A DNA stretch of 64,000 nucleotides from an uncultured Candidatus Saccharibacteria bacterium (GCA_964493895.1 CAZBPY010000003.1:15176-79175), one strand, 5' to 3'; shown: positions 539-61,675, numbered from the stretch's first letter. Numbers and translations: made by a program. Notes: generated by a model from the sequence alone, not told the origin.

Positions 539-3073
539 ATGGTTAAAAACAATCATCATTTGCACCACTGGCACGCCGAGCAGCCTAGTTTTGTGTTGAA
601 ATCTTTTGACACCAGTACCGAGGGTCTATCTTCAGCTAAGGCCAAGCAGCGGTTAAAACGCTTTGGTCTAAACGTTTTAACCACCGAAAAAACCTCCTGG
701 CTGAAACGTCTCGTCGAGCCTTTCACTAGCTTGTTTGTGATTATTATGGTGGTGGCCTTGGTAATTAGCCTGGTGATGCAGGAACCTACTGATGCCTTGG
801 TAATTAGTGCTGTTTTGATTGTCAACGCTTTGATTTACTACTTCCAGCAGTACTCGGTCGGCCGAGTGCTGGCGTCCTTAAAGAGTCAGGAAGCTGGTAC
901 GGTTAGCGTTATGCGCGACGGCAAAAGACTTGAGATTAAGGCCCGCGGAATTGTACCTGGTGATATTGTCTATCTGTTCGAGGGGTTGAAGGTACCGGCA
1001 GACGGTCGAGTTATTGAAGCCAGCAATCTAGACGTTGATGAGTCAATATTAACTGGCGAGTCTTTGCCGGTCAGTAAATCTATTGATAGTTTGCCAGAAA
1101 AAACTGAAATTGGAGATCAAAAGAACATGGTCTTTAAGGGCACGTTGGTTTATAAGGGCAGTGGCTTGTTTGTGGTAACGGCCACCGCCAATAATACCCA
1201 GTTGGGAACAATCAGCCGTCTAGCCAGTCAAAGCGATATTGGTCGAACCCCAATCGAACGCAAAATTGATGAAATCACCAAAAAAATAGTCTACGGCGTA
1301 GGGGTAATAGCGGTTATCGTTTTTGGCCTGGGCCTGCTGCGTGGCATCGGCTTGGCCGAGGCCATTCGCTTTACCCTCTCCCTAGTTGTCTCGGTAGTTC
1401 CCGAGGGCTTACCAGTTACTCTAACTGTAGTTCTGTTATTAAGCGCCAAACGGATGGCCCGCCACAAGGCTCTGGTCAAGCGTCTGGCCAGCATTGAAAC
1501 TATGGGGGCCATCACCTTGATTGCTACCGACAAAACCGGTACTCTGACTCAGAACAAACTTGATGTAGCGGCGGTTCATCCGGACAAAACCAGTGTAGCT
1601 CACGCCGCCGCGGCCAGCATTACCACTGAAAACGGTATAACCCTTGATCCGCTGGATAATTTGTTGGACAAAGCTTTCGGCAATTTCGTTAAGCCGGGGC
1701 GGCGGCTGGACGATTTTCCCTTTGATCAAAAATTGCGGATGAGCGGTGCCGTTTGGCAGACCAAGAGCGGCAAAATTACCTTTGTTAAGGGTGCTCCTGA
1801 AGTTATGATCAGCAGCCTGTCGGCAGCCGAAAGGCGTAAGATCATGCAGGTTCTAGACGACTATACCTCGCGCGGCTTTCGAACAATTGCCTTCGGTCAT
1901 CTATCTAGCGGTGTCAAGCAGCTTTCCGATGTTTCTAAACACAAGCTAAAGTTTGATGGACTGGTGGCTTTGGCTGATCCGCTGCGGCCTAATATTCCAT
2001 CGGCTATTGCCGAGGCTCGAGCAGCCGGCATCAAAGTAGTAATGTTAACCGGTGACCACAAAAATACCGCCGAAGAAATTGCTCGGCAAGCCGGACTGGT
2101 TACAAATTCAGACCAGGTAGCTGATAGTAGAATGCTGGAAAAGCCGCCCAATCGTCATCTTATGAAAACAGTTCTATCACGGATCCATGTCTTTGGCCGC
2201 GTCCTGCCGCAACACAAGTTTAACTTTCTTAAAAGCGTCAAGGACACTGAGGTTACGGCTATGACCGGAGACGGTGTTAATGATATCCCAGCCCTGGTAG
2301 AAGCCGACGCCGGTCTATCAATGGGTAGCGGTACCGACGCGGCCAAAGACGCCAGCGATATTGTTCTGTTAGACGACAATTTTGGCACCATCATTAACGC
2401 TGTCAAGCAAGGCCGAGCCGTGATTGCTAACATCCAAAAGATGCTATTCTATCTTATCTCAACTAGTCTCGGTGAAGCTGGAACCATGATTGGCGCCCTG
2501 CTGACCGGCTTGCCGCTGCCGGTAACTGCCGTACAAATTCTGTGGATCAACCTAGTGACCGATACTTTTACAGTGTTGCCGATTGGCATCTCCAAGCCCG
2601 AGCGCTACCAGATGAAGCAGCCGCCGCGAAGTCCTCACAGACCGTTGTTATCACGGCCAATGTTGTCACGCACCATCTGGACTGGCCTGCTGACCGCGGC
2701 GGCCACGCTTTTCGTATTCCATCGTTTGCTACCCAAAGGCTATGACTATGCCCAGACGGCGGCCTTCACAGCCATTGTGGTGGCCCAATGGGCCAATGCC
2801 CTGAACGCTGCTTTCGACCGCTATAGTTGGCTATATTTCTTCCTGCGACCAAACTTCCTGCTGTTAGGCGGAATTGTAATTTCAATCGGCCTGCAGGCTT
2901 TGGTCGTCTATGGTCCGCTGCAATCAGCCTTCGGCATCGTGCCGCTGTCGTCATCAGATCTCATGCTGACGGTGTTTGTACCGGCCGCCACGGTTCTGCT
3001 TGGCGTCGACCTGCACAAGCTAATTTTCCGCCGCTCGGATTTACCCCCTGAAAGGGCCGCCCAAACACCTTAG
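539..3073 (+). CDS. Cation-transporting P-type ATPase (P2-type, Ca2+/Mg2+-like)
   Basis: TGES actuator motif, DKTGTLT phosphorylation site and TGDGVNDIPAL hinge motif; ten-helix membrane architecture. Confidence 0.9.
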   Translation: MVKNNHHLHHWHAEQPSFVLKSFDTSTEGLSSAKAKQRLKRFGLNVLTTEKTSWLKRLVEPFTSLFVIIMVVALVISLVMQEPTDALVISAVLIVNALIYYFQQYSVGRVLASLKSQEAGTVSVMRDGKRLEIKARGIVPGDIVYLFEGLKVPADGRVIEASNLDVDESILTGESLPVSKSIDSLPEKTEIGDQKNMVFKGTLVYKGSGLFVVTATANNTQLGTISRLASQSDIGRTPIERKIDEITKKIVYGVGVIAVIVFGLGLLRGIGLAEAIRFTLSLVVSVVPEGLPVTLTVVLLLSAKRMARHKALVKRLASIETMGAITLIATDKTGTLTQNKLDVAAVHPDKTSVAHAAAASITTENGITLDPLDNLLDKAFGNFVKPGRRLDDFPFDQKLRMSGAVWQTKSGKITFVKGAPEVMISSLSAAERRKIMQVLDDYTSRGFRTIAFGHLSSGVKQLSDVSKHKLKFDGLVALADPLRPNIPSAIAEARAAGIKVVMLTGDHKNTAEEIARQAGLVTNSDQVADSRMLEKPPNRHLMKTVLSRIHVFGRVLPQHKFNFLKSVKDTEVTAMTGDGVNDIPALVEADAGLSMGSGTDAAKDASDIVLLDDNFGTIINAVKQGRAVIANIQKMLFYLISTSLGEAGTMIGALLTGLPLPVTAVQILWINLVTDTFTVLPIGISKPERYQMKQPPRSPHRPLLSRPMLSRTIWTGLLTAAATLFVFHRLLPKGYDYAQTAAFTAIVVAQWANALNAAFDRYSWLYFFLRPNFLLLGGIVISIGLQALVVYGPLQSAFGIVPLSSSDLMLTVFVPAATVLLGVDLHKLIFRRSDLPPERAAQTP

Positions 3074-3109
3074 GTTTTGCGATATACCTTAAAAGATATA
3101 TTGCAAAAC
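3074..3109. repeat. AT-rich palindromic repeat element, copy 1 (core GATATACCTTAAAAGATATATT)
   Basis: 36-bp imperfect palindrome starting 1 nt after the ATPase stop and lying between convergent genes. One of four copies of a conserved 22-mer. Confidence 0.6.
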
Positions 3110-3149: not shown

Positions 3150-3467
3150 TTACCGCCGCGGCCAAATAACCGCCGCGGTAATTGACCCTAGAGGAATCGG
3201 GCCAAAGTCTCGGCTGTCGGTACTCATTGGCCGGTTGTCGCCCGAAACAATAAAACCGTCACCGTCTGTGTCGACAATTCGTTTGATTTTCTCTAGCCCG
3301 TGGTGACTAAATACCACGATCTGACCGGGACGATAATGCCGCCGGGGCACAGCCAAAATCAGACGTCCCGGCCTTAAGGTCGGCTGCATGCTGTCGCCAA
3401 CCACTCGGCGGACTAAAAACCTAGGCCGCCTTTTTGGTTTCGTGGAAGATCTTGGCGATCTCATCAA
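3150..3467 (-). CDS. sodX: Small S26 family (signal peptidase I-like) peptidase, candidate NiSOD maturation protease SodX
   Basis: GDSMQPTL (box B) and GDNRxxSxDSR (box E) motifs. There is no N-terminal TM segment and the product is only about 105 aa. It lies immediately downstream of sodN. The annotated start overlaps sodN by 47 nt, so the true start is probably internal. Confidence 0.6.
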   Translation of the reverse strand: MMRSPRSSTKPKRRPRFLVRRVVGDSMQPTLRPGRLILAVPRRHYRPGQIVVFSHHGLEKIKRIVDTDGDGFIVSGDNRPMSTDSRDFGPIPLGSITAAVIWPRR

Positions 3468-3804
3468 TCATGTCCAGCAATTTCTGACCCTCAGCCGGAT
3501 CAACAGACTTCTTGCAGTCACCGGCTTGCTTGGTAGCTTGCCAAAACTTATCATGCAAATCTGGATACTTTTCTAAATGCGGCGGCTTGAAATAATCTGT
3601 CCATAGTACCCATAAGTGATGCTTTACCAGTTCAGCTCGCTGTTCTTTGATAAAAATAGCCCGGATTTTATCTTCCTGGTGAAGGTCGGAACTGTATTTT
3701 TTCATAATCTCATGAACCGATTCAGCTTCGATACGAGCCTGAGCCGGATCATATACTCCGCATGGTAAATCACAATGTGCATAAACTGGCTTGATCAAAC
3801 TCAT
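3421..3804 (-). CDS. sodN: Nickel-containing superoxide dismutase (NiSOD) precursor
   Basis: 9-aa propeptide MSLIKPVYA followed by the Ni-hook HCDLPCGVYDPAQARIEAESV. Similarity to Streptomyces SodN runs over the full length. A GGAGGG SD sits 5 nt upstream. Confidence 0.9.
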   Translation of the reverse strand: MSLIKPVYAHCDLPCGVYDPAQARIEAESVHEIMKKYSSDLHQEDKIRAIFIKEQRAELVKHHLWVLWTDYFKPPHLEKYPDLHDKFWQATKQAGDCKKSVDPAEGQKLLDMIDEIAKIFHETKKAA

Positions 3805-3833
3805 AATCCCTCCTTCGATGTGATTCTAGTATA

Positions 3834-4556
3834 TCACTGGAGATATTTTATAGCCAGATCACGAGCCAATAGTCCGGAAATCGGATTAGCAAACCCTGCC
3901 AGGTCAGCCGTCAATGGACGTTTGTCCTGACTCAAAGCTTGTTGCAGATGATTGGGACTGAGTCCTACCATTCGCAAGGCCTCACCAGCTGCAAATCGGT
4001 ACAAAAGAGTCGGCTTGCCGTCCGACTTAGCATAGATTGACGGCCAGACCAATCTATCAAATTTATCGTGTATCATCGAAGGGTCCGGACGGTCACGAAC
4101 TACTTTTCGAGCCCGGTGTTGAGCAGCCATAACACCATGCAATACGGTTGTCGTGGCTGCTAAATCAACAGCCGGTCCTATATCTGTACGACAGGCGTGT
4201 TGCAGAATTCTAGGGAACTTCTTAGATACTGACACGATTGTTGCTGTCATATCATATTTACTACGTCGGTGCCAGGTGGACATAGGCGGATGAATATCAA
4301 CTGCAGGAGAAGTGTCAAACGACAGCTTTGTATGAGCAACATCAATGGCATCGTCAGACATGGCGTATCGGTCCTTTAGGTGACGAACTGCCTCCCCAGA
4401 TAGAGCAGCCGAGTACACAACATCGAGGAAGCCCTCGACTTCCTCGATACCATTCCTAATTTGGGGGTTGTCGGGGAATTGAATTACTTCGCCGCATTTA
4501 TCTCCGGGTCCATTAGTCATAATTACTATTATATCACACTTGTCAATCTTTTTCAA
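3834..4556 (-). CDS. Hypothetical protein (240 aa), no confident family assignment
   Basis: Long ORF with coding-like composition between sodN and trmD. The N-terminal GPGDKCGEV is only weakly reminiscent of UDG family motifs. Confidence 0.5.
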   Translation of the reverse strand: MKKIDKCDIIVIMTNGPGDKCGEVIQFPDNPQIRNGIEEVEGFLDVVYSAALSGEAVRHLKDRYAMSDDAIDVAHTKLSFDTSPAVDIHPPMSTWHRRSKYDMTATIVSVSKKFPRILQHACRTDIGPAVDLAATTTVLHGVMAAQHRARKVVRDRPDPSMIHDKFDRLVWPSIYAKSDGKPTLLYRFAAGEALRMVGLSPNHLQQALSQDKRPLTADLAGFANPISGLLARDLAIKYLQ

Positions 4557-5294: not shown

Positions 5295-6860
5295 ATGCGT
5301 AGCTTAAAAATGGCGGTAGGTTTTTTTATTGCTGCAGTGATATTATTTGCTCCAGCATTGGGTTCGGTGTCTTCGGCTCAAGCTTCGTCTGATTATGAAG
5401 ACAGTGAGTGTTATTTGGGCAACGTTCCTGCTTTTGATGCACGCGACCAGATTCGACCAGGCAGCTATGCTATCTATGCTAAATTGGCTCGCCGTGGACA
5501 ATTAGCACCTGTGACTCTTTATATTGAGGACAATGGAGCTTCTGCTTGCCAGCTAGTCGGTTCAATTGAAGCAAATGGCGAGACCTGGCAGAGGGTAGGC
5601 ACTTGGGATTCAATCGATGATGCGCCGGTTCGGTTTCAACTGAGTTCGCCGGCTTTTACTTATGAACTTGACGCTAACCGCCCATCGATAATGTTACTTC
5701 CGCTGACTAGTCCGCCCTGCCAGCCGGTTGTTAATTGTGAACTTGAGTACGAGGGTCAGCCTGCATACCTTGTGCCGACTAGTACTTTACTAAGCGAAAA
5801 TCAATTGCGGGTACAACAAGTCAAAGATCTACAATCAGATCGTTTGGTGCAGGTTGGGTATTTTTCTGATGGTCAATTACTTTACACCACGCCTAAGTTA
5901 GAGCCGTTTGACCTGCGGTATGTCCGTGGCGGTGATCACGACCTATCCAGGGTGCTGCAATTTGAGTCCGGGCAGAGGGTGGTTTTACCTTCCACTGCCA
6001 GGATTAGCTTTGCCAGAGATTTTCAAAATCTGTTATTCCGCCTTTTTCACAGCAATCGCATCGGCTTGCAAATTCTAGCCACCTTAATCATCTTGTCTCT
6101 AGTGGCCATGATTACTCTGGCCGCTATTCGCACCCTACATCGGCGACGTATTTGGAAGCTTAGTCATGGTTTATTGAGGCCGTCGCCTTCTAAACTGCAG
6201 CCACAGCAACAGCTGCCGGCCAATTATGTTCCGCCGGCCCATAAATTCATAGCTGAGGATTCGGCCCTGATAAAGCGAGTTAAACAGTTCATGCCTTATG
6301 TTTTTGCGGCGATTTGCATCGTTGTGGCCATTGGCGTAATTGACACTTATGTGGGTCAGCTATTTAAGGTTGATGGGCCAAGCATGGAAAACACTCTTCA
6401 GACCGATGATTTGATCTATGTTAACCGACTACCAAAAACCTGGGCCACTATCAATGGCGGTGAATTCGTGCCTAAACGCGGGCAAGTTGTCGTCTTCCAA
6501 AAGGCCCATAGCGAACTGTTTATTCAGGAAAGTCAGGGCGAAGAAAATACATATGTTGTCAAGCGAGTTTTGGGACTGCCTGGTGAGCGAGTACTGATCA
6601 AAAACGGTAAAATCACTATTTTTAACCGCGATCATCCTGGCGGCTTCAACCCTGATGATAACAGTGACTGGCAGGCAACATATATCGTTGACCCGAACGA
6701 GAATATTGACTTAACCCTAAATCAAAGCGAGATCTTTGTCACTGGCGACAATCGTCCAGAATCACTAGACTCTCGAACCAACGGACCGATTAATATCAAT
6801 GAGCTGATTGGAGTGGCCGAAGCCCGCCTATTGCCGTTTAGCAAACGCCAAACGCTTTAG
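5295..6860 (+). CDS. lepB: Signal peptidase I (S26A) with a long N-terminal extracytoplasmic extension
   Basis: C-terminal domain carries GPSMENTL (catalytic Ser), KRVLGLPGERV and GDNRPESLDSR boxes. N-terminal hydrophobic segment, a domain of about 230 aa, two TM helices, then the catalytic domain. Confidence 0.75.
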   Translation: MRSLKMAVGFFIAAVILFAPALGSVSSAQASSDYEDSECYLGNVPAFDARDQIRPGSYAIYAKLARRGQLAPVTLYIEDNGASACQLVGSIEANGETWQRVGTWDSIDDAPVRFQLSSPAFTYELDANRPSIMLLPLTSPPCQPVVNCELEYEGQPAYLVPTSTLLSENQLRVQQVKDLQSDRLVQVGYFSDGQLLYTTPKLEPFDLRYVRGGDHDLSRVLQFESGQRVVLPSTARISFARDFQNLLFRLFHSNRIGLQILATLIILSLVAMITLAAIRTLHRRRIWKLSHGLLRPSPSKLQPQQQLPANYVPPAHKFIAEDSALIKRVKQFMPYVFAAICIVVAIGVIDTYVGQLFKVDGPSMENTLQTDDLIYVNRLPKTWATINGGEFVPKRGQVVVFQKAHSELFIQESQGEENTYVVKRVLGLPGERVLIKNGKITIFNRDHPGGFNPDDNSDWQATYIVDPNENIDLTLNQSEIFVTGDNRPESLDSRTNGPININELIGVAEARLLPFSKRQTL

Positions 6861-21770: not shown

Positions 21771-21857
21771 TGGTGCGCGGGGCGGGACTCGAACCCGCAC
21801 GCCCAGTTGGGCATTTGATTTTAAGTCAAACTTGGCTACCAGTTACAACACCCGCGC
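21771..21857 (-). tRNA. tRNA-Leu (anticodon TAA), long variable arm
   Basis: 87 nt. Acceptor gcgcggg/cccgcgc, anticodon loop cuUAAaa, encoded CCA. Confidence 0.85.
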
Positions 21858-22349
21858 TCTCTGTAATCTTAACGCAACTTTCTTATTTTTGCCACGGTGT
21901 GTTGGTTGCAGACTGTGACAATTGGGACATAATATTCTTAGGTTTACTAACCTATTGTCTGTGGGATCACCATTGATGTGATCTAATTCCACTGGGATTC
22001 TACCGTCTATACTTCTTTCTGCCCATCCACAAATTTCACATTTTGGATTTTTTAATCCATCTTTGTAGAGACGGAGCTTTAGGGTATGGCTTTGGACTTT
22101 GCTGCCTTTTCGAAGCCACTTTTTTGTAGGTGTAATAGGAAGATTAAATTTATACAATCCGCCCTTGTTCCAGCCTCGACCGGTAAAATGATGGGTTGAG
22201 AGTTTTAGTTCAGCAACTCGTTCGGAAACTTGTTTATAGTTGCCGCCTGCCGGAATAAGGCCAATCTTTTTTATTACGGCTCGGTAACTAGTGCAAGTAG
22301 CCACCGCTTTCACTAATTGCTCGTCCGTCCAGCTGCGTTGCTTCGGCAT
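21843..22349 (-). CDS. HNH endonuclease (homing-endonuclease-like) with an N-terminal HTH-like region
   Basis: ELDHINGDPTDNRLVNLRILCPNCHS HNH/zinc motif. The 3' end overlaps the 5' end of tRNA-Leu(TAA) by about 15 nt. Confidence 0.75.
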   Translation of the reverse strand: MPKQRSWTDEQLVKAVATCTSYRAVIKKIGLIPAGGNYKQVSERVAELKLSTHHFTGRGWNKGGLYKFNLPITPTKKWLRKGSKVQSHTLKLRLYKDGLKNPKCEICGWAERSIDGRIPVELDHINGDPTDNRLVNLRILCPNCHSLQPTHRGKNKKVALRLQRARVL

Positions 22350-22643
22350 ACAGCCAGAGTACCAAACACATATTAAATACCTATTAAACGTGAATAATTT
22401 GGAGGCGCGTACGAGATTTGCACTCGTGTATAAGGTTTTGCAGACCTTTGCCTAACTCCTCGGCCAACGCGCCGCATAATATCCCTGTTCATTGTAACGT
22501 AAACCCCTGTTCAAGAAAATCGCTAAATATAGACCATTACATCCGACGACAGCCGGTTTTTTATGATCTAACCTAGCCCCTCTTCGCGAATTGCTCGGCA
22601 ATATCTTTATTTATAACCCAGAGGTTGGTTTGCCATCTCTGTC

Positions 22644-26835: not shown

Positions 26836-28620
26836 CTACTCTATTGTAACTCGTTTTTCACGGATCGCCCAGTTCTGAACATTGGCAAAGCGATCAGTCG
26901 CCGAGTTAAAGCCTGTCGGCTCAAACCCATAAACCTTTTCGGTAGTCACATACAAAAACCTGGGTTGAAACAAGGCAATGGCCGGAGCATCCTTGCGCCA
27001 CTGGTCTAGCATTGGTTTATACTTTGGTATCCTCAACACCGGATCCACCCGGCTGCGTCCACCTTCGAGCCCAGTGTCAACCACTTCCGACTTATACTCA
27101 GCCAAGTTCAAGCGCTGGTCAGCACTTGGATCAGCCTGGCTGGAGTGCCAATAGGCATAAATGTCCGGATCATTACCCAGCGAGACTCCATAAAGCAAGG
27201 CATCGTAGTTGTGGAAAGCGATGGTCGATTGCAGCTCGGCATCCGGCTGTAAGACAACGTCAACCTTCACCCCTACATCGCGCCACTGCTTTTGAATCAT
27301 GCTGGCTACATAGGAGTACTGGTCGGAGCTGCGTGATACTAACTGAATTTGCAGAGGTTGTCCGGCTTTAAGGCGAATGCCGTCTTTGCCAACGGTCCAA
27401 CCATTGCTTTCCAGTAACTTTTTCGCTTCACCTGGGTTGTAGGGTAACTGGATTGAACTTGGGTCGTAACCTATATGACTGCGCAACAGCAGACTGTCAG
27501 CCTTGATGACCGGATAGCCAAGTCCGGCAATGATGGCATCGGTGTTGGTAGCCTGGGTTAGAGCTTGGCGGACAGTTACATCAGATAAAATTGGCGCACT
27601 GTTCTTCAAAAATATCATCACCTCTCCGGCTAGTGGCACATTATATCTATCGATTCCATCGGTATCGTGAAGCTCCTGGGGCAATACGTCTAAGCCAGCT
27701 GCTGCCGTAATTTCACGATGGACCAATGCGGCACTGAGCGACTCCTCGCTACGAAAAGCTCGAATGACAAACCGATCCAACTGAGGTCGGCCCTGGTAGT
27801 ATTGGTCGTAGTTGACTAACCCAACCTGCTCTTCTCTGGTCTCAGGAGTATTACCAACGACCTGCACAGCATCCCATTTGAACGGCCCTGATCCAACCGG
27901 GTTAACAGTATTAAAATTGCTGGAACGCAAACTTGATGAAGGCACGCCTTCCAGAATGTGTTTCGGCACCAATCCGGTCGTTAGGGTGTGCGGGAATGAT
28001 GCCAAGCCGTGCGGCAAGGTAAATTTGATGGTTCGATCATCCAGGGCTTCAATCTTGACATTTTGCCAGATAGGCAAAAGCGGTGACTTGGCATCAGGGT
28101 TTTGTATGGTCTTGAAGGTAAAGGCAGCGTCATCAGCTGTCAATTGCCTGCCGTCATGCCAGAAGACATCATCACGCAAATAGGCTGTGTACTCAGATGC
28201 TTGGGGATTGGAATCCAACTTGTAAGCAATGTCACCGACCAACTGATTGTTACTGTCGTACTGCATTAACCCAGAGAAAACCAAACGCGATACCGCAGCA
28301 TCAACTGGGCCAGTGGCATACAGCGGGCTGGCATTGGTAAATGCCCCTACTATACCCTCCGTGTAGGTGCCCCCTGGGGCTGGGCCATCGACTTGATAAA
28401 AGCGGGTCAATCCTCTGGTTTGAGCCACTACACTACCGGCCAGCAAGACTAGTAATAGCAGCCATCCAAGAATAAAACGCCGAACACCGACAATGTGATC
28501 AAGCCGCTTAAACAAATATCGGTCCAAACCTTTTTCGGCTTGTTGACCCAATTCCTGAGCCTGGTGCTTGCTCCTCTTAACACGTCTGCGGATCCGTAAT
28601 TTTTGTACGCGACTAATCAT
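26836..28620 (-). CDS. ABC transporter substrate-binding protein, family 5 (peptide/nickel-type), membrane anchored
   Basis: N-terminal TM anchor and SBP family 5 architecture. Start set at MISRVQ to avoid overlap with secG. Confidence 0.6.
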   Translation of the reverse strand: MISRVQKLRIRRRVKRSKHQAQELGQQAEKGLDRYLFKRLDHIVGVRRFILGWLLLLVLLAGSVVAQTRGLTRFYQVDGPAPGGTYTEGIVGAFTNASPLYATGPVDAAVSRLVFSGLMQYDSNNQLVGDIAYKLDSNPQASEYTAYLRDDVFWHDGRQLTADDAAFTFKTIQNPDAKSPLLPIWQNVKIEALDDRTIKFTLPHGLASFPHTLTTGLVPKHILEGVPSSSLRSSNFNTVNPVGSGPFKWDAVQVVGNTPETREEQVGLVNYDQYYQGRPQLDRFVIRAFRSEESLSAALVHREITAAAGLDVLPQELHDTDGIDRYNVPLAGEVMIFLKNSAPILSDVTVRQALTQATNTDAIIAGLGYPVIKADSLLLRSHIGYDPSSIQLPYNPGEAKKLLESNGWTVGKDGIRLKAGQPLQIQLVSRSSDQYSYVASMIQKQWRDVGVKVDVVLQPDAELQSTIAFHNYDALLYGVSLGNDPDIYAYWHSSQADPSADQRLNLAEYKSEVVDTGLEGGRSRVDPVLRIPKYKPMLDQWRKDAPAIALFQPRFLYVTTEKVYGFEPTGFNSATDRFANVQNWAIREKRVTIE

Positions 28621-28630
28621 ACCACCTCTG

Positions 28631-28846
28631 TTATGCCAAGACGATGCTAAGCAAAATCGAAGCCGCAAACACAAAGGCTACGATAATAGTTAGCTGAAAA
28701 ATCGTCTTGTCAGAACCCCGCCGAACAGTATTAATCTCTGAACCACCGCCAAAGCCAGCCCCCAAGGTTGCTCCACGGACTTGAATCAAAATAAGAATGG
28801 TCATCAGTATGGCGCTTACGACTGTTGTGTAACCTAGAAAATCCAT
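28631..28846 (-). CDS. secG: Preprotein translocase subunit SecG
   Basis: Two TM helices with a Gly-rich loop LGAGFGGGSEINTV. Confidence 0.7.
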   Translation of the reverse strand: MDFLGYTTVVSAILMTILILIQVRGATLGAGFGGGSEINTVRRGSDKTIFQLTIIVAFVFAASILLSIVLA

Positions 28847-29236
28847 TTACCTCTCCTCTAAAATAGTCGTCACTAAATAGTTTACCAGCCCGATGATAAT
28901 TCCAGCAATAAGAGCCGATCCAAAACTCTCAACATTTAAGTCGCCGTATAGATGGCTGGCTAGTAAGACCATAAGGGCATTGATGACAATCATAAACAGC
29001 CCCAGACTAAACAACAATGCCGGCAAGGCCAACAGAACAATGATCGGCTTTATGACGGTGTTAATTAAGGCCAGAACCAGACCTGCCACCACAATCACGC
29101 CCAAGCGATTATCATAAGTAATTCGATCAGGCCCAAGTATGCTAGCAGCTATCCATAGACCAAGGCCGCAGACAAACCAGCGGACTACAAATCGAGCAAT
29201 TGGGTTATTCATAATGCTTATTCTATTGTAGGCCAT
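28847..29236 (-). CDS. YvlD / phage-holin-4_2-like small membrane protein
   Basis: Four TM helices of about 125 aa, with the VINALMVLLAS-type pattern of this family. Confidence 0.5.
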   Translation of the reverse strand: MAYNRISIMNNPIARFVVRWFVCGLGLWIAASILGPDRITYDNRLGVIVVAGLVLALINTVIKPIIVLLALPALLFSLGLFMIVINALMVLLASHLYGDLNVESFGSALIAGIIIGLVNYLVTTILEER

Positions 29237-60601: not shown

Positions 60602-61675
60602 CTACTCAGCGATTACGCCGATTTTGAATTGTTCTAGTTGACTAGCGGCGCTGGAGCTGTGCGGTGTGCCGCTGCCAATTGATCGGCCGTCAGCATCTTG
60701 GCGTTGGGTGAAGTGAGTGGTTGCATCTATGCCGCAGGCGCGCAAGATCTCAGATCCGCCAGGGTGGCTGGCAATAAAATCAGTGATGTCATAGACTGAA
60801 CCACGAATTATTGTCCAGCAATCCTCGGAGTTGTCATGAGTAGCTACTTCAGCAACCGTAAAAACCTCTCCCTCGATCGTCTCTGTCTCGGTCTCTGGAG
60901 CATCCTCGAATTCCTCAATCACAGTGCTGGTTTCCTCTACCGGTTGTTCGTCCTTATTGAGCTGGCCGTAGACTAACCAACCACCGCCGACCAATACGGC
61001 CATCACGACGATAATAGCTATTACTTTCTTCATTAATTTACCCTCCTTGTGGGCTTTAATTGCTTCGACTATTTGAATATACCCTATGCACACGGCTAAG
61101 ACCAAGGCATACCAAAGCCAAAGCGTTCTGTACCAACCTTGCTGTAGATTGGCACCCAATGCCAAAGCATGAGCTACAATCGCAAACATGGCAATGATTT
61201 GAGCGTACTCAATAATCGGCCACCAATTTTTTTGCTCGAACCAGCGCTTAGTCTCGAAGGCCAGAAAGGTCAGGAAAGCCAACGTCCCGAAAGTGGCTGC
61301 CCACTGCAAACTTATTCCAACATATTCCAGATAGCTCCCGGGCGGAAAACCAAGCCCCGCCAGCCAAAGACCGGCAATTAACAGAGACGGGTGCAGCAAA
61401 ATAAAAATCAACGCCGCCCAGCCAGTAACCTTAAAGTAATGTTTGAGCGGTTCCTTTTCTACCCCAGCCGCTCGCCTAATGGCTCCGACGACGTAATGAG
61501 CCCACATCAAGCTGAACGCCAACAGACCAAAGAGAGGGAAGAGCCGAAAATCAGTAAAAGTGGCTAATTCAAAACCTTCATAAACCTGCCCCCAGGCTAT
61601 GACGGCCAAAAGGCAGACCACCACACTTAAGGCCCAGGCGCTGGCGATAACCCCCCTTTGTTTCATACGAAGCAT
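60602..61675 (-). CDS. Polytopic membrane protein (His-rich six-TM heme-binding-like N-domain) fused to a C-terminal cytochrome b5-like domain
   Basis: C-terminus SEDCWTIIRGSVYDITDFIASHPGG matches the cytochrome b5 HPGG heme-binding motif. N-terminal six TM helices have conserved His. Confidence 0.6.
   Translation of the reverse strand: MLRMKQRGVIASAWALSVVVCLLAVIAWGQVYEGFELATFTDFRLFPLFGLLAFSLMWAHYVVGAIRRAAGVEKEPLKHYFKVTGWAALIFILLHPSLLIAGLWLAGLGFPPGSYLEYVGISLQWAATFGTLAFLTFLAFETKRWFEQKNWWPIIEYAQIIAMFAIVAHALALGANLQQGWYRTLWLWYALVLAVCIGYIQIVEAIKAHKEGKLMKKVIAIIVVMAVLVGGGWLVYGQLNKDEQPVEETSTVIEEFEDAPETETETIEGEVFTVAEVATHDNSEDCWTIIRGSVYDITDFIASHPGGSEILRACGIDATTHFTQRQDADGRSIGSGTPHSSSAASQLEQFKIGVIAE

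Follow-up and report, generated by a model that had tools for sequence, protein, structure and literature searches.

A trmD-linked nickel superoxide dismutase and its SodX-type protease in a Saccharimonadales bacterium, at a position where close relatives encode a different superoxide dismutase

The DNA analyzed here is a stretch of 64,000 nucleotides (nt) from an uncultured Candidatus Saccharibacteria bacterium (GCA_964493895.1, CAZBPY010000003.1:15176-79175; hereafter the window). Between positions 3150 and 3804, its minus strand encodes a nickel superoxide dismutase (NiSOD), SodN, and a small S26-family peptidase, SodX. This locus is very probably a cytoplasmic NiSOD module, comprising sodN and the gene for its maturation protease, that has been inherited mostly vertically beside trmD. 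The genome belongs to the Saccharimonadales (TM7, Patescibacteria), an order in which NiSOD and SodX are widespread. The module is not new for the phylum, because both members of the pair are already named in databases and a passage in Starr et al. 2018 reports a NiSOD from the soil Saccharibacterium 'T. rhizospherense' (PMC6031116). What is chiefly new is the presence, at the same chromosomal spot in close relatives, of another type of superoxide dismutase (SOD).

SodN has the sequence features of a NiSOD. Its profile scores are well above the cutoffs, at 154.9 bits for Pfam PF09055 Sod_Ni (cutoff 25) and 153.5 bits for NCBIfam TIGR02753 sodN (cutoff 90). Residues 10-126 align to residues 1-117 of the mature Streptomyces enzyme in PDB entry 1q0d with zero gaps (E 3e-43), an alignment that spans the full-length four-helix-bundle subunit. 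The N-terminus reads MSLIKPVYA followed directly by the nickel-binding hook (Ni-hook) HCDLPCGVY at precursor residues 10-18. His10 pairs with His1 of the mature NiSOD crystal structures, and the nine-residue leader must therefore be removed. SodN is also identical to 1q0d at Tyr9, Glu17, Arg47, Asp61, and Tyr62, all five of the positions that we take to form the second sphere of Streptomyces NiSOD. Of the 120 closest SodN homologues, 118 share the hook HCDLPCGVY and 2 have HCDLPCGIY. Their leaders are 8-14 residues long, with 11 the commonest length and a single outlier of 36. Ala occupies position -1 in all 120, and Val occupies position -3 in 115. This Val-x-Ala end fits the classic small-x-small -3/-1 site of S26 peptidases. 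The intact hook behind a 9-residue leader, as proposed in a preliminary description of this DNA, is thus borne out by profile scores, homologues, and alignment to characterized SodN. At the level of sequence, SodN is confirmed as an intact, ordinary full-length NiSOD that is predicted to bind nickel and to have SOD activity.

The adjoining open reading frame (ORF), 3150..3467, is supported as a SodX-type protein, a minimal S26 peptidase with a Ser/Lys dyad that is soluble. It passes the cutoffs of both Pfam Peptidase_S26 (42.8 bits; cutoff 22.9) and Peptidase_S24 (36.4 bits). Among the NCBIfam families, TIGR02754 (nickel-type superoxide dismutase maturation protease) gives the highest-ranking match, at 53.0 bits. 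When the protein is aligned to solved signal peptidases, GDSMQPTL corresponds to box B, KIKRIV to box D (VKRIIG in signal peptidase I), and GDNRPMSTDSR to box E (GDNRxxSxDSR). The Ser/Lys dyad on which the preliminary description had staked its case for a protease is present as Ser25 and Lys61, numbered from ATG 3464. Both residues are invariant in an alignment of 66 homologues, as are G23, M26, P28, R62, G75, and D76 and, in the C-terminal part, S81, T82, D83, S84, R85, and G88; R19 and R20 are shared by at least 90% of them. From this alignment, AlphaFold2 gave a confident model (pLDDT 90.3) that is all-beta after residues 1-16, which have no secondary structure. Its best PDB matches are SpsB, SipA, and LepB, with query TM-scores of 0.72-0.78, and LexA and UmuD match less well, at 0.5-0.6. 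The sequence contains no hydrophobic segment and the model no anchor helix, and the score against the signal peptidase I family TIGR02227 (45.6 bits) is below the cutoff of 47, so the ORF does not qualify as LepB. Pfam, alignment, and hydrophobicity therefore agree with the earlier picture of an anchorless peptidase of about 105 residues. To place the protein among its kin, a profile was built from 44 actinobacterial peptidase ORFs adjoining sodN and nothing else. It scores this ORF at 81.5 bits (E 1e-24) and the housekeeping LepB of the window at 37.0 bits, which places SodX nearer to the sodN-linked peptidases. Motifs, fold, lack of an anchor, and this profile, together with a position directly downstream of sodN and overlapping it, are our grounds for filing the ORF as a SodX-type protease even though it misses the NCBI threshold.

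The locus occupies a conserved place in the chromosome. The order rpsP, KH-domain protein, trmD, a variable insert, sodN, and sodX is found in about 24 Saccharimonadales loci. To view this position without regard to SOD type, a metagenome scan based on TrmD was used, in which distinct loci were scored for a SOD gene no more than 3.5 kb downstream of trmD. Where TrmD was at least 63% identical to that of the window, 20 loci had sodN(-sodX), 6 a Cu/Zn SOD, 4 an Fe/Mn SOD, and 7 no SOD with at least 3 kb seen, and 15 were too short. At TrmD identities of 53% or less, no locus had any of the three types; 7 had none with at least 3 kb seen and 18 were too short. A SOD gene is thus present in 30 of the 37 informative related loci. 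NiSOD is the commonest state and is the one present in the window. Because these 30 loci hold one or another of three unrelated families, the position appears to be a conserved SOD slot in which one isoform has replaced another in place.

The clearest cases involve a near-orphan gene, unk240, that lies directly 5' of sodN in the window. The contexts of its three full-length relatives (L081-L085 loci) were read, and each lies between trmD and a SOD gene, with a convergent P-type ATPase gene and/or an AI-2E transporter gene next. The SOD in all three is a Cu/Zn enzyme of 154-172 residues that lacks a signal peptide. Flanking genes of the Cu/Zn-SOD loci are 84-86% (TrmD), 71% (ATPase), and 75-77% (AI-2E transporter) identical to those of the window, whereas TrmD of sodN-bearing loci is only 71-75% identical. 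By their flanking genes, the Cu/Zn-SOD loci are therefore the closest relatives of the window. Our moderately favored interpretation is that three enzymes, NiSOD (accompanied by its protease), a Cu/Zn SOD lacking a signal peptide, and an Fe/Mn SOD, have interchanged in the trmD slot between close relatives by in-place non-orthologous displacement, a form of metal-cofactor switching, with the window keeping NiSOD where its nearest relatives have the Cu/Zn enzyme, and that in a sub-clade the 5' end of sodX is overprinted 38-50 nt into sodN. If so, the slot would offer a clean natural system for asking how the availability of Ni, Cu/Zn, and Fe/Mn drives enzyme replacement in reduced genomes.

The replacing genes were located as follows. 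Cu/Zn SOD genes stand in place of sodN-sodX at L081:4730-5248, L084:3524-3988, L085:5715-6233, and L086:2185-2703, with Sod_Cu scores of about 100 bits. Their products lack a hydrophobic signal peptide at the N-terminus (for example, MEGKTISGTGTFTEYDVDG...). Few bacterial Cu/Zn SODs are of this kind, and the feature suggests that the enzyme is cytoplasmic. Fe/Mn SOD genes occur on other, Saccharimonadales-like contigs (L096:6768-7349, L098:3680-4279, L101, and L103), where they are encoded on the opposite strand at a distance of 1.2-2.2 kb downstream from trmD.

The closest SodN proteins and loci come from metagenome-assembled genomes of Candidatus Saccharimonadales or Saccharibacteria, at no more than 87% identity for the loci, and an NCBI protein 100% identical to this SodN exists. 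Many Saccharimonadales SodN proteins are named 'superoxide dismutase, Ni', and NCBI and JGI already name both members of the pair. In NCBI, some of the Saccharimonadales SodX homologues are called 'nickel-type superoxide dismutase maturation protease' and others 'S26 family signal peptidase'. Literature searches for NiSOD in Patescibacteria yielded, beyond Starr et al. 2018, generic mentions of SOD only. The preliminary description had considered a NiSOD module in so small a genome notable; given its spread through the order, its database names, and the 2018 report (PMC6031116, in the passage cited above), that judgment is not supported. SodN and TrmD vary together in pairwise identity (Mantel r 0.42, a value attained in 0 of 2000 permutations), and the guanine-plus-cytosine (GC) content is within the host range. 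Together with the conserved trmD-linked order, these results argue for mostly vertical inheritance within Saccharimonadales. Two contigs assigned elsewhere, L008 (JAYVTZ010000008.1, Burkholderiaceae) and L026 (DATLRC010000002.1, Dormiibacterota), have the order rpsP-KH-trmD-sodN-sodX and a TrmD 65-69% identical to that of the window, and are probably mis-binned Saccharimonadales contigs.

Gene order separates these loci from the actinobacterial ones. Every Patescibacteria locus has sodX immediately after sodN and co-directional with it. The sodX genes of more than 40 Actinomycetota loci are instead upstream of sodN and divergently transcribed, 80-270 nt from the sodN start. A neighbor-joining tree of SodN has one clean split, between the tandem (Patescibacteria) and the divergent (Actinomycetota) proteins. 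The Streptomyces-like organization proposed in the preliminary description thus stands as regards adjacency, which is seen in 40 distinct tandem loci and in 40 or more divergent actinobacterial loci, and fails as regards order.

Only two potential start codons of sodX lie 5' of the Arg19-Arg20 motif, TTG 3467 and ATG 3464; both are within sodN and give overlaps with its 3' end of 47 and 44 nt, respectively. The alternative, GTG 3404, lies 17 nt past the sodN stop codon, leaves four residues ahead of the catalytic Ser, and deletes Arg-Arg. Across the 40 distinct tandem loci, 20 have an ATG 38-50 nt inside sodN with the frame open into sodX, and in 12 a start inside sodN is the only usable one that keeps Arg-Arg. 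The internal ATG is retained even where the flanking SodN residues have changed, to Asn-Glu in L049 and Asp-Ala in L012. In other loci, sodX begins just past the sodN stop codon or 1-4 nt across it, with the form M-x(2-8)-RRVxGxSM, so two start architectures coexist. The N-terminal tail of SodX in the window, MRSPRSSTKPKRRPRF, is basic because the Lys-rich end of sodN is read in the +1 frame. These data make ATG 3464 (or TTG 3467) the likely start of sodX. Because 12 of the 40 loci have no outside start that keeps the near-invariant Arg-Arg, the overlap itself is probably genuine. The 47-nt overlap noted in the preliminary description is present in the sequence, but the redefinition it called for is probably not needed, the overlap being conserved and the sole means of keeping Arg-Arg; in many relatives, a start inside sodN is also the sole way to keep the catalytic Ser.

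Several points weigh against the module as described above. The SodX score of 53.0 bits falls short of the curated TIGR02754 cutoff of 63.25, so that the NCBI rule yields only the name 'S26 family signal peptidase'. Processing and activity of SodN in Patescibacteria are extended by analogy from other systems, and co-transcription with unk240 draws on a single match to a promoter consensus. No Shine-Dalgarno-like motif precedes ATG 3464, and a start at GTG 3404 would retain the catalytic Ser. Nickel importers, for which the preliminary description had suggested a search, were sought with Pfam and NCBIfam in approximately 35 of the ORFs in the 64-kb window, and no NiCoT, HupE/UreJ, UreH/SodT, CbiMNQO, or Nik permease was found. 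The missed cutoff could point to a general protease of the S26/S24 kind, either a signal-peptidase paralogue or a LexA-like self-cleaving domain, that adjoins sodN without maturing its product. Signal peptidase I fits the sequence nearly as well by score, JGI labels many of the homologues 'phage repressor protein C with S24 domain', and PHROGs returns weak CI-repressor hits. We regard this as very improbable, since the protein has only about 104 residues and no helix-turn-helix, membrane anchor, or self-cleavage region, and the genome already has its own LepB. The actinobacterial SodX profile clearly favors the ORF over that LepB, adjacency to sodN has been kept in two phyla despite opposite gene orders, and the SodN leader ends in the conserved Val-x-Ala site. 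Profiles, adjacency, and cleavage site thus uphold the pairing of sodN with a SodX-type maturation protease. A recent acquisition of the module from an actinobacterial host, Saccharibacteria being epibionts on Actinobacteria, would account for a SodN that is 64-76% identical to actinobacterial SodN, as near as some Saccharibacteria, and would agree with Actinobacteria being the main known holders of NiSOD. It is hardly credible given a position beside trmD that is conserved across many Saccharimonadales, a SodN identity that follows that of TrmD, a gene order unlike every actinobacterial locus, a SodN tree that divides cleanly between the groups, and a host-like GC content. An ancient transfer between the phyla, in either direction, is possible on this tree, which was drawn without outgroups.

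The lack of a ribosome-binding motif ahead of ATG 3464 is also an argument for the view that sodX starts at GTG 3404 and encodes 84 residues with no overlap, the longer frame being an accident of the sodN sequence. Re-initiation 17 nt after termination, with the catalytic Ser kept, is plausible, and the sequence of the tail is mostly dictated by sodN codons. This start is unlikely, though less so than the two explanations above, because it would remove Arg19-Arg20, and even the shortest natural SodX N-termini still read M-(x)-RRVxGxSM. In addition, 12 related loci have no such alternative, the ATG inside sodN alone keeping Ser, and the AAAAAGG near GTG 3404 is approximately 18-26 nt away, too distant for a ribosome-binding site. 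The possibility that a frameshift at A-AAA-AAG near the sodN stop codon yields a SodN-SodX fusion was rejected, as the frame of sodX is +1 rather than -1 and the two genes are separate, with no overlap, in many relatives. The favored start inside sodN bears on annotation in Saccharimonadales, where the true sodX start often lies within sodN. Public SodX gene calls fall into three classes of 100-117, 88-100, and 79-88 residues. Members of the shortest class (P0163, P0175, P0176, P0178, P0180, and others) start at the Met directly after the catalytic Ser and are almost certainly truncated proteins that lack the nucleophile. The short calls look like a systematic miscall of the start by gene callers that avoid the overlap with sodN.

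These results allow a mechanism to be proposed for the module. SodN would be translated from its strong Shine-Dalgarno sequence as a precursor of 127 residues. By analogy to work on Streptomyces and Prochlorococcus, SodX would cut this precursor after Val-Tyr-Ala9, making His10 the new N-terminus; the conserved Val-x-Ala/His site is what points to this cleavage. The Ni-hook would bind nickel only after cleavage, through the amine and imidazole of His1, the amide of Cys2, and the thiolates of Cys2 and Cys6, and the holoenzyme would then dismutate cytoplasmic superoxide by cycling between Ni(II) and Ni(III), as its counterparts do. With sodX probably starting at ATG 3464, 44 nt inside sodN and in the +1 frame, synthesis of the protease would be physically coupled to synthesis of its substrate, and the basic tail of SodX would be a by-product of the frame in which the end of sodN is read. 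Transcription may begin at the promoter-like site 4556..4528 ahead of unk240 and may end at the hairpin 3075..3108. The module holds a fixed position downstream of the rpsP/KH-protein/trmD operon, where other members of the order have a Cu/Zn or Fe/Mn SOD instead. An ultra-small, presumably host-dependent bacterium, an epibiont with a genome of about 1 Mb, would thus have its own cytoplasmic superoxide defense and a need for nickel. The module fits the view of soil Saccharibacteria as oxygen-exposed, which was already known. Coordinates of the features are collected in Table 1.

Table 1. Features of the sodN-sodX locus, in window coordinates
Feature	Position	Strand	Basis
sodN coding sequence, NiSOD precursor (127 residues)	3421..3804	-	Pfam Sod_Ni and TIGR02753 scores; gapless 1q0d alignment
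Shine-Dalgarno AAGGAGG of sodN	3809..3815	-	Read from the sequence; 4 nt 5' of ATG 3804
Leader codons MSLIKPVYA (9 residues), predicted cleavage after Ala9	3778..3804	-	1q0d alignment begins at His10
Ni-hook HCDLPCGVY, mature residues 1-9	3751..3777	-	Sequence and PDB alignment
sodX coding sequence, favored start ATG 3464 (104 residues)	3150..3464	-	Pfam S26/S24; TIGR02754 best hit; SodX profile; AlphaFold2
Alternative sodX starts, TTG 3467 (105 residues) and GTG 3404		-	ORF 3150..3467 from TTG
Catalytic Ser codon in GDSMQPTL, Ser25 (ATG) or Ser26 (TTG)	3390..3392	-	Invariant in 66 homologues; box B
General-base Lys codon in KIKRIV, Lys61 (ATG) or Lys62 (TTG)	3282..3284	-	K-R invariant in 66 homologues; box D
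Box E GDNRPMSTDSR of the S26 fold	3210..3242	-	G, D, S, T, D, S, R invariant
Probable out-of-frame overlap of sodX and sodN, 44 nt from ATG; would encode the basic, unstructured SodX tail	3421..3464	-	
Near-orphan unk240, directly 5' of sodN	3834..4520	-	29-nt gap to sodN
AT-rich inverted repeat separating sodX from the convergent P-type ATPase gene	3075..3108	.	RNA-fold hairpin

The near-orphan unk240 has only 4 relatives among 1.84 billion representative proteins, at 27-42% identity, and no hit in Pfam, NCBIfam, or PHROGs. A strong promoter-like site, TTGAAA-17-TATAAT, at 4556..4528 on the minus strand matches 11 of 12 consensus positions and ends approximately 8 nt before ATG 4520, a spacing at which the unk240 mRNA may be leaderless. 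An alignment of unk240 with its relatives suggests that it starts at ATG 4520 and not at TTG 4556, and unk240 is possibly the first gene of the sodN-sodX transcript. At the other end, the hairpin 3075..3108 is a possible, weak candidate for a bidirectional terminator. Its z-score is -1.8 when the whole 101 nt are folded, and a terminator scan called none after sodX, this hairpin included.

Elsewhere in the window, no match to the motifs of Fe/Mn or Cu/Zn SODs turned up, so that no other SOD was seen within the 64 kb. The family-5 solute-binding protein that the preliminary description had raised in connection with nickel is real (26836..28674, minus strand; SBP_bac_5, 212.6 bits), but as a nickel lead it is generic. 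Its scores are far below the specific cutoffs for NikA (TIGR02294, 96.6 versus 393) and Opp4A (135.9 versus 650), and it has no ABC permease or ATPase neighbor, being flanked by tRNA-Leu and a holin-like four-helix protein (28847..29236). Its N-terminus extends approximately 100 residues ahead of the binding domain. The P-type ATPase gene convergent with sodX (539..3073, plus strand) encodes a P2-type, Ca2+-ATPase-like protein with a PEGLP motif and a His-rich N-terminus, MVKNNHHLHHWH, that is below every NCBIfam equivalog cutoff. The His-rich N-terminus made it a candidate metal link, which was rejected because the protein is a P2-type pump found beside the SOD gene only in the closest relatives. 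The housekeeping LepB (5295..6860, plus strand; 93.3 bits) is unusually long at 521 residues, with its S26 domain at approximately 336-515 behind an N-terminal extension of about 330 residues that has several hydrophobic segments; the long form (518 residues) is conserved in the close relatives L081 and L082 at 59% identity. Farther away, 60602..61675 (minus strand) encodes a membrane protein of approximately six predicted helices that ends in a haem-binding, cytochrome b5-like domain (63.9 bits). Such a protein is unexpected where metabolism is reduced, and it may bear on redox or oxygen biology. A small HNH-endonuclease ORF (21843..22349, minus strand; HNH_3, 25.2 bits) lies in a tRNA cluster, overlaps the 3' end of tRNA-Leu (21771..21857), is followed by tRNA-Cys (22400..22473), and may be the remnant of a mobile element.

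The module can be compared with several known systems. Relative to the NiSODs of Streptomyces coelicolor and S. seoulensis (SodN SCO5254; 1q0d and 1t6u), the hook is identical and 117 residues align without a gap. As in the Streptomyces SodN/SodX (SCO5255) pair, the leader ends in small-x-Ala and an S26 peptidase with a Ser/Lys dyad is encoded alongside. The Streptomyces SodN leader has 14 residues, whereas the leader here has 9. In contrast to the upstream, divergent sodX of Streptomyces, for which an intergenic region between sodN and sodX has been described in S. coelicolor (PMC3919588), sodX here is downstream, co-directional, and overlapping. Also unlike Streptomyces, no Nur or sodF regulatory context is seen at this locus. 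A hydrophobic segment just before the catalytic domain seems to be present in several actinobacterial sodX ORFs (L025, L029, and L075; for example, HYLVAAGVVFAAVW), as far as provisional starts in high-GC sequence indicate, and is absent from the N-terminus of Saccharimonadales SodX proteins.

Marine cyanobacteria of the genera Prochlorococcus and Synechococcus reportedly have a sodT-sodN-sodX cluster, said to have been described by Eitinger in 2004. Like that cluster, the module is found in a small genome that possibly relies on NiSOD, and it sets a short, anchorless SodX beside sodN. In the Prochlorococcus system, active NiSOD is dependent on the cognate peptidase, according to work cited in a passage of PMC8346466. 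Cyanobacteria have a UreH-family nickel permease, SodT, co-localized with sodN-sodX (PMC4284471), whereas no SodT-type transporter is found within this 64-kb window. The NiSOD of 'T. rhizospherense' belongs to the same phylum and gene family and has the same inferred role in defense against oxidative stress; the passage of that paper on the enzyme mentions the SOD gene only and describes no protease, overlap, or trmD-linked position (PMC6031116). Finally, SodX differs from the type I signal peptidases LepB and SpsB in having no anchor, no large beta-sheet domain II, a length of only about 104 residues, and a presumably cytoplasmic substrate, and shares with them the core fold, boxes B, D, and E, the Ser/Lys dyad, and a predicted -3/-1 specificity.

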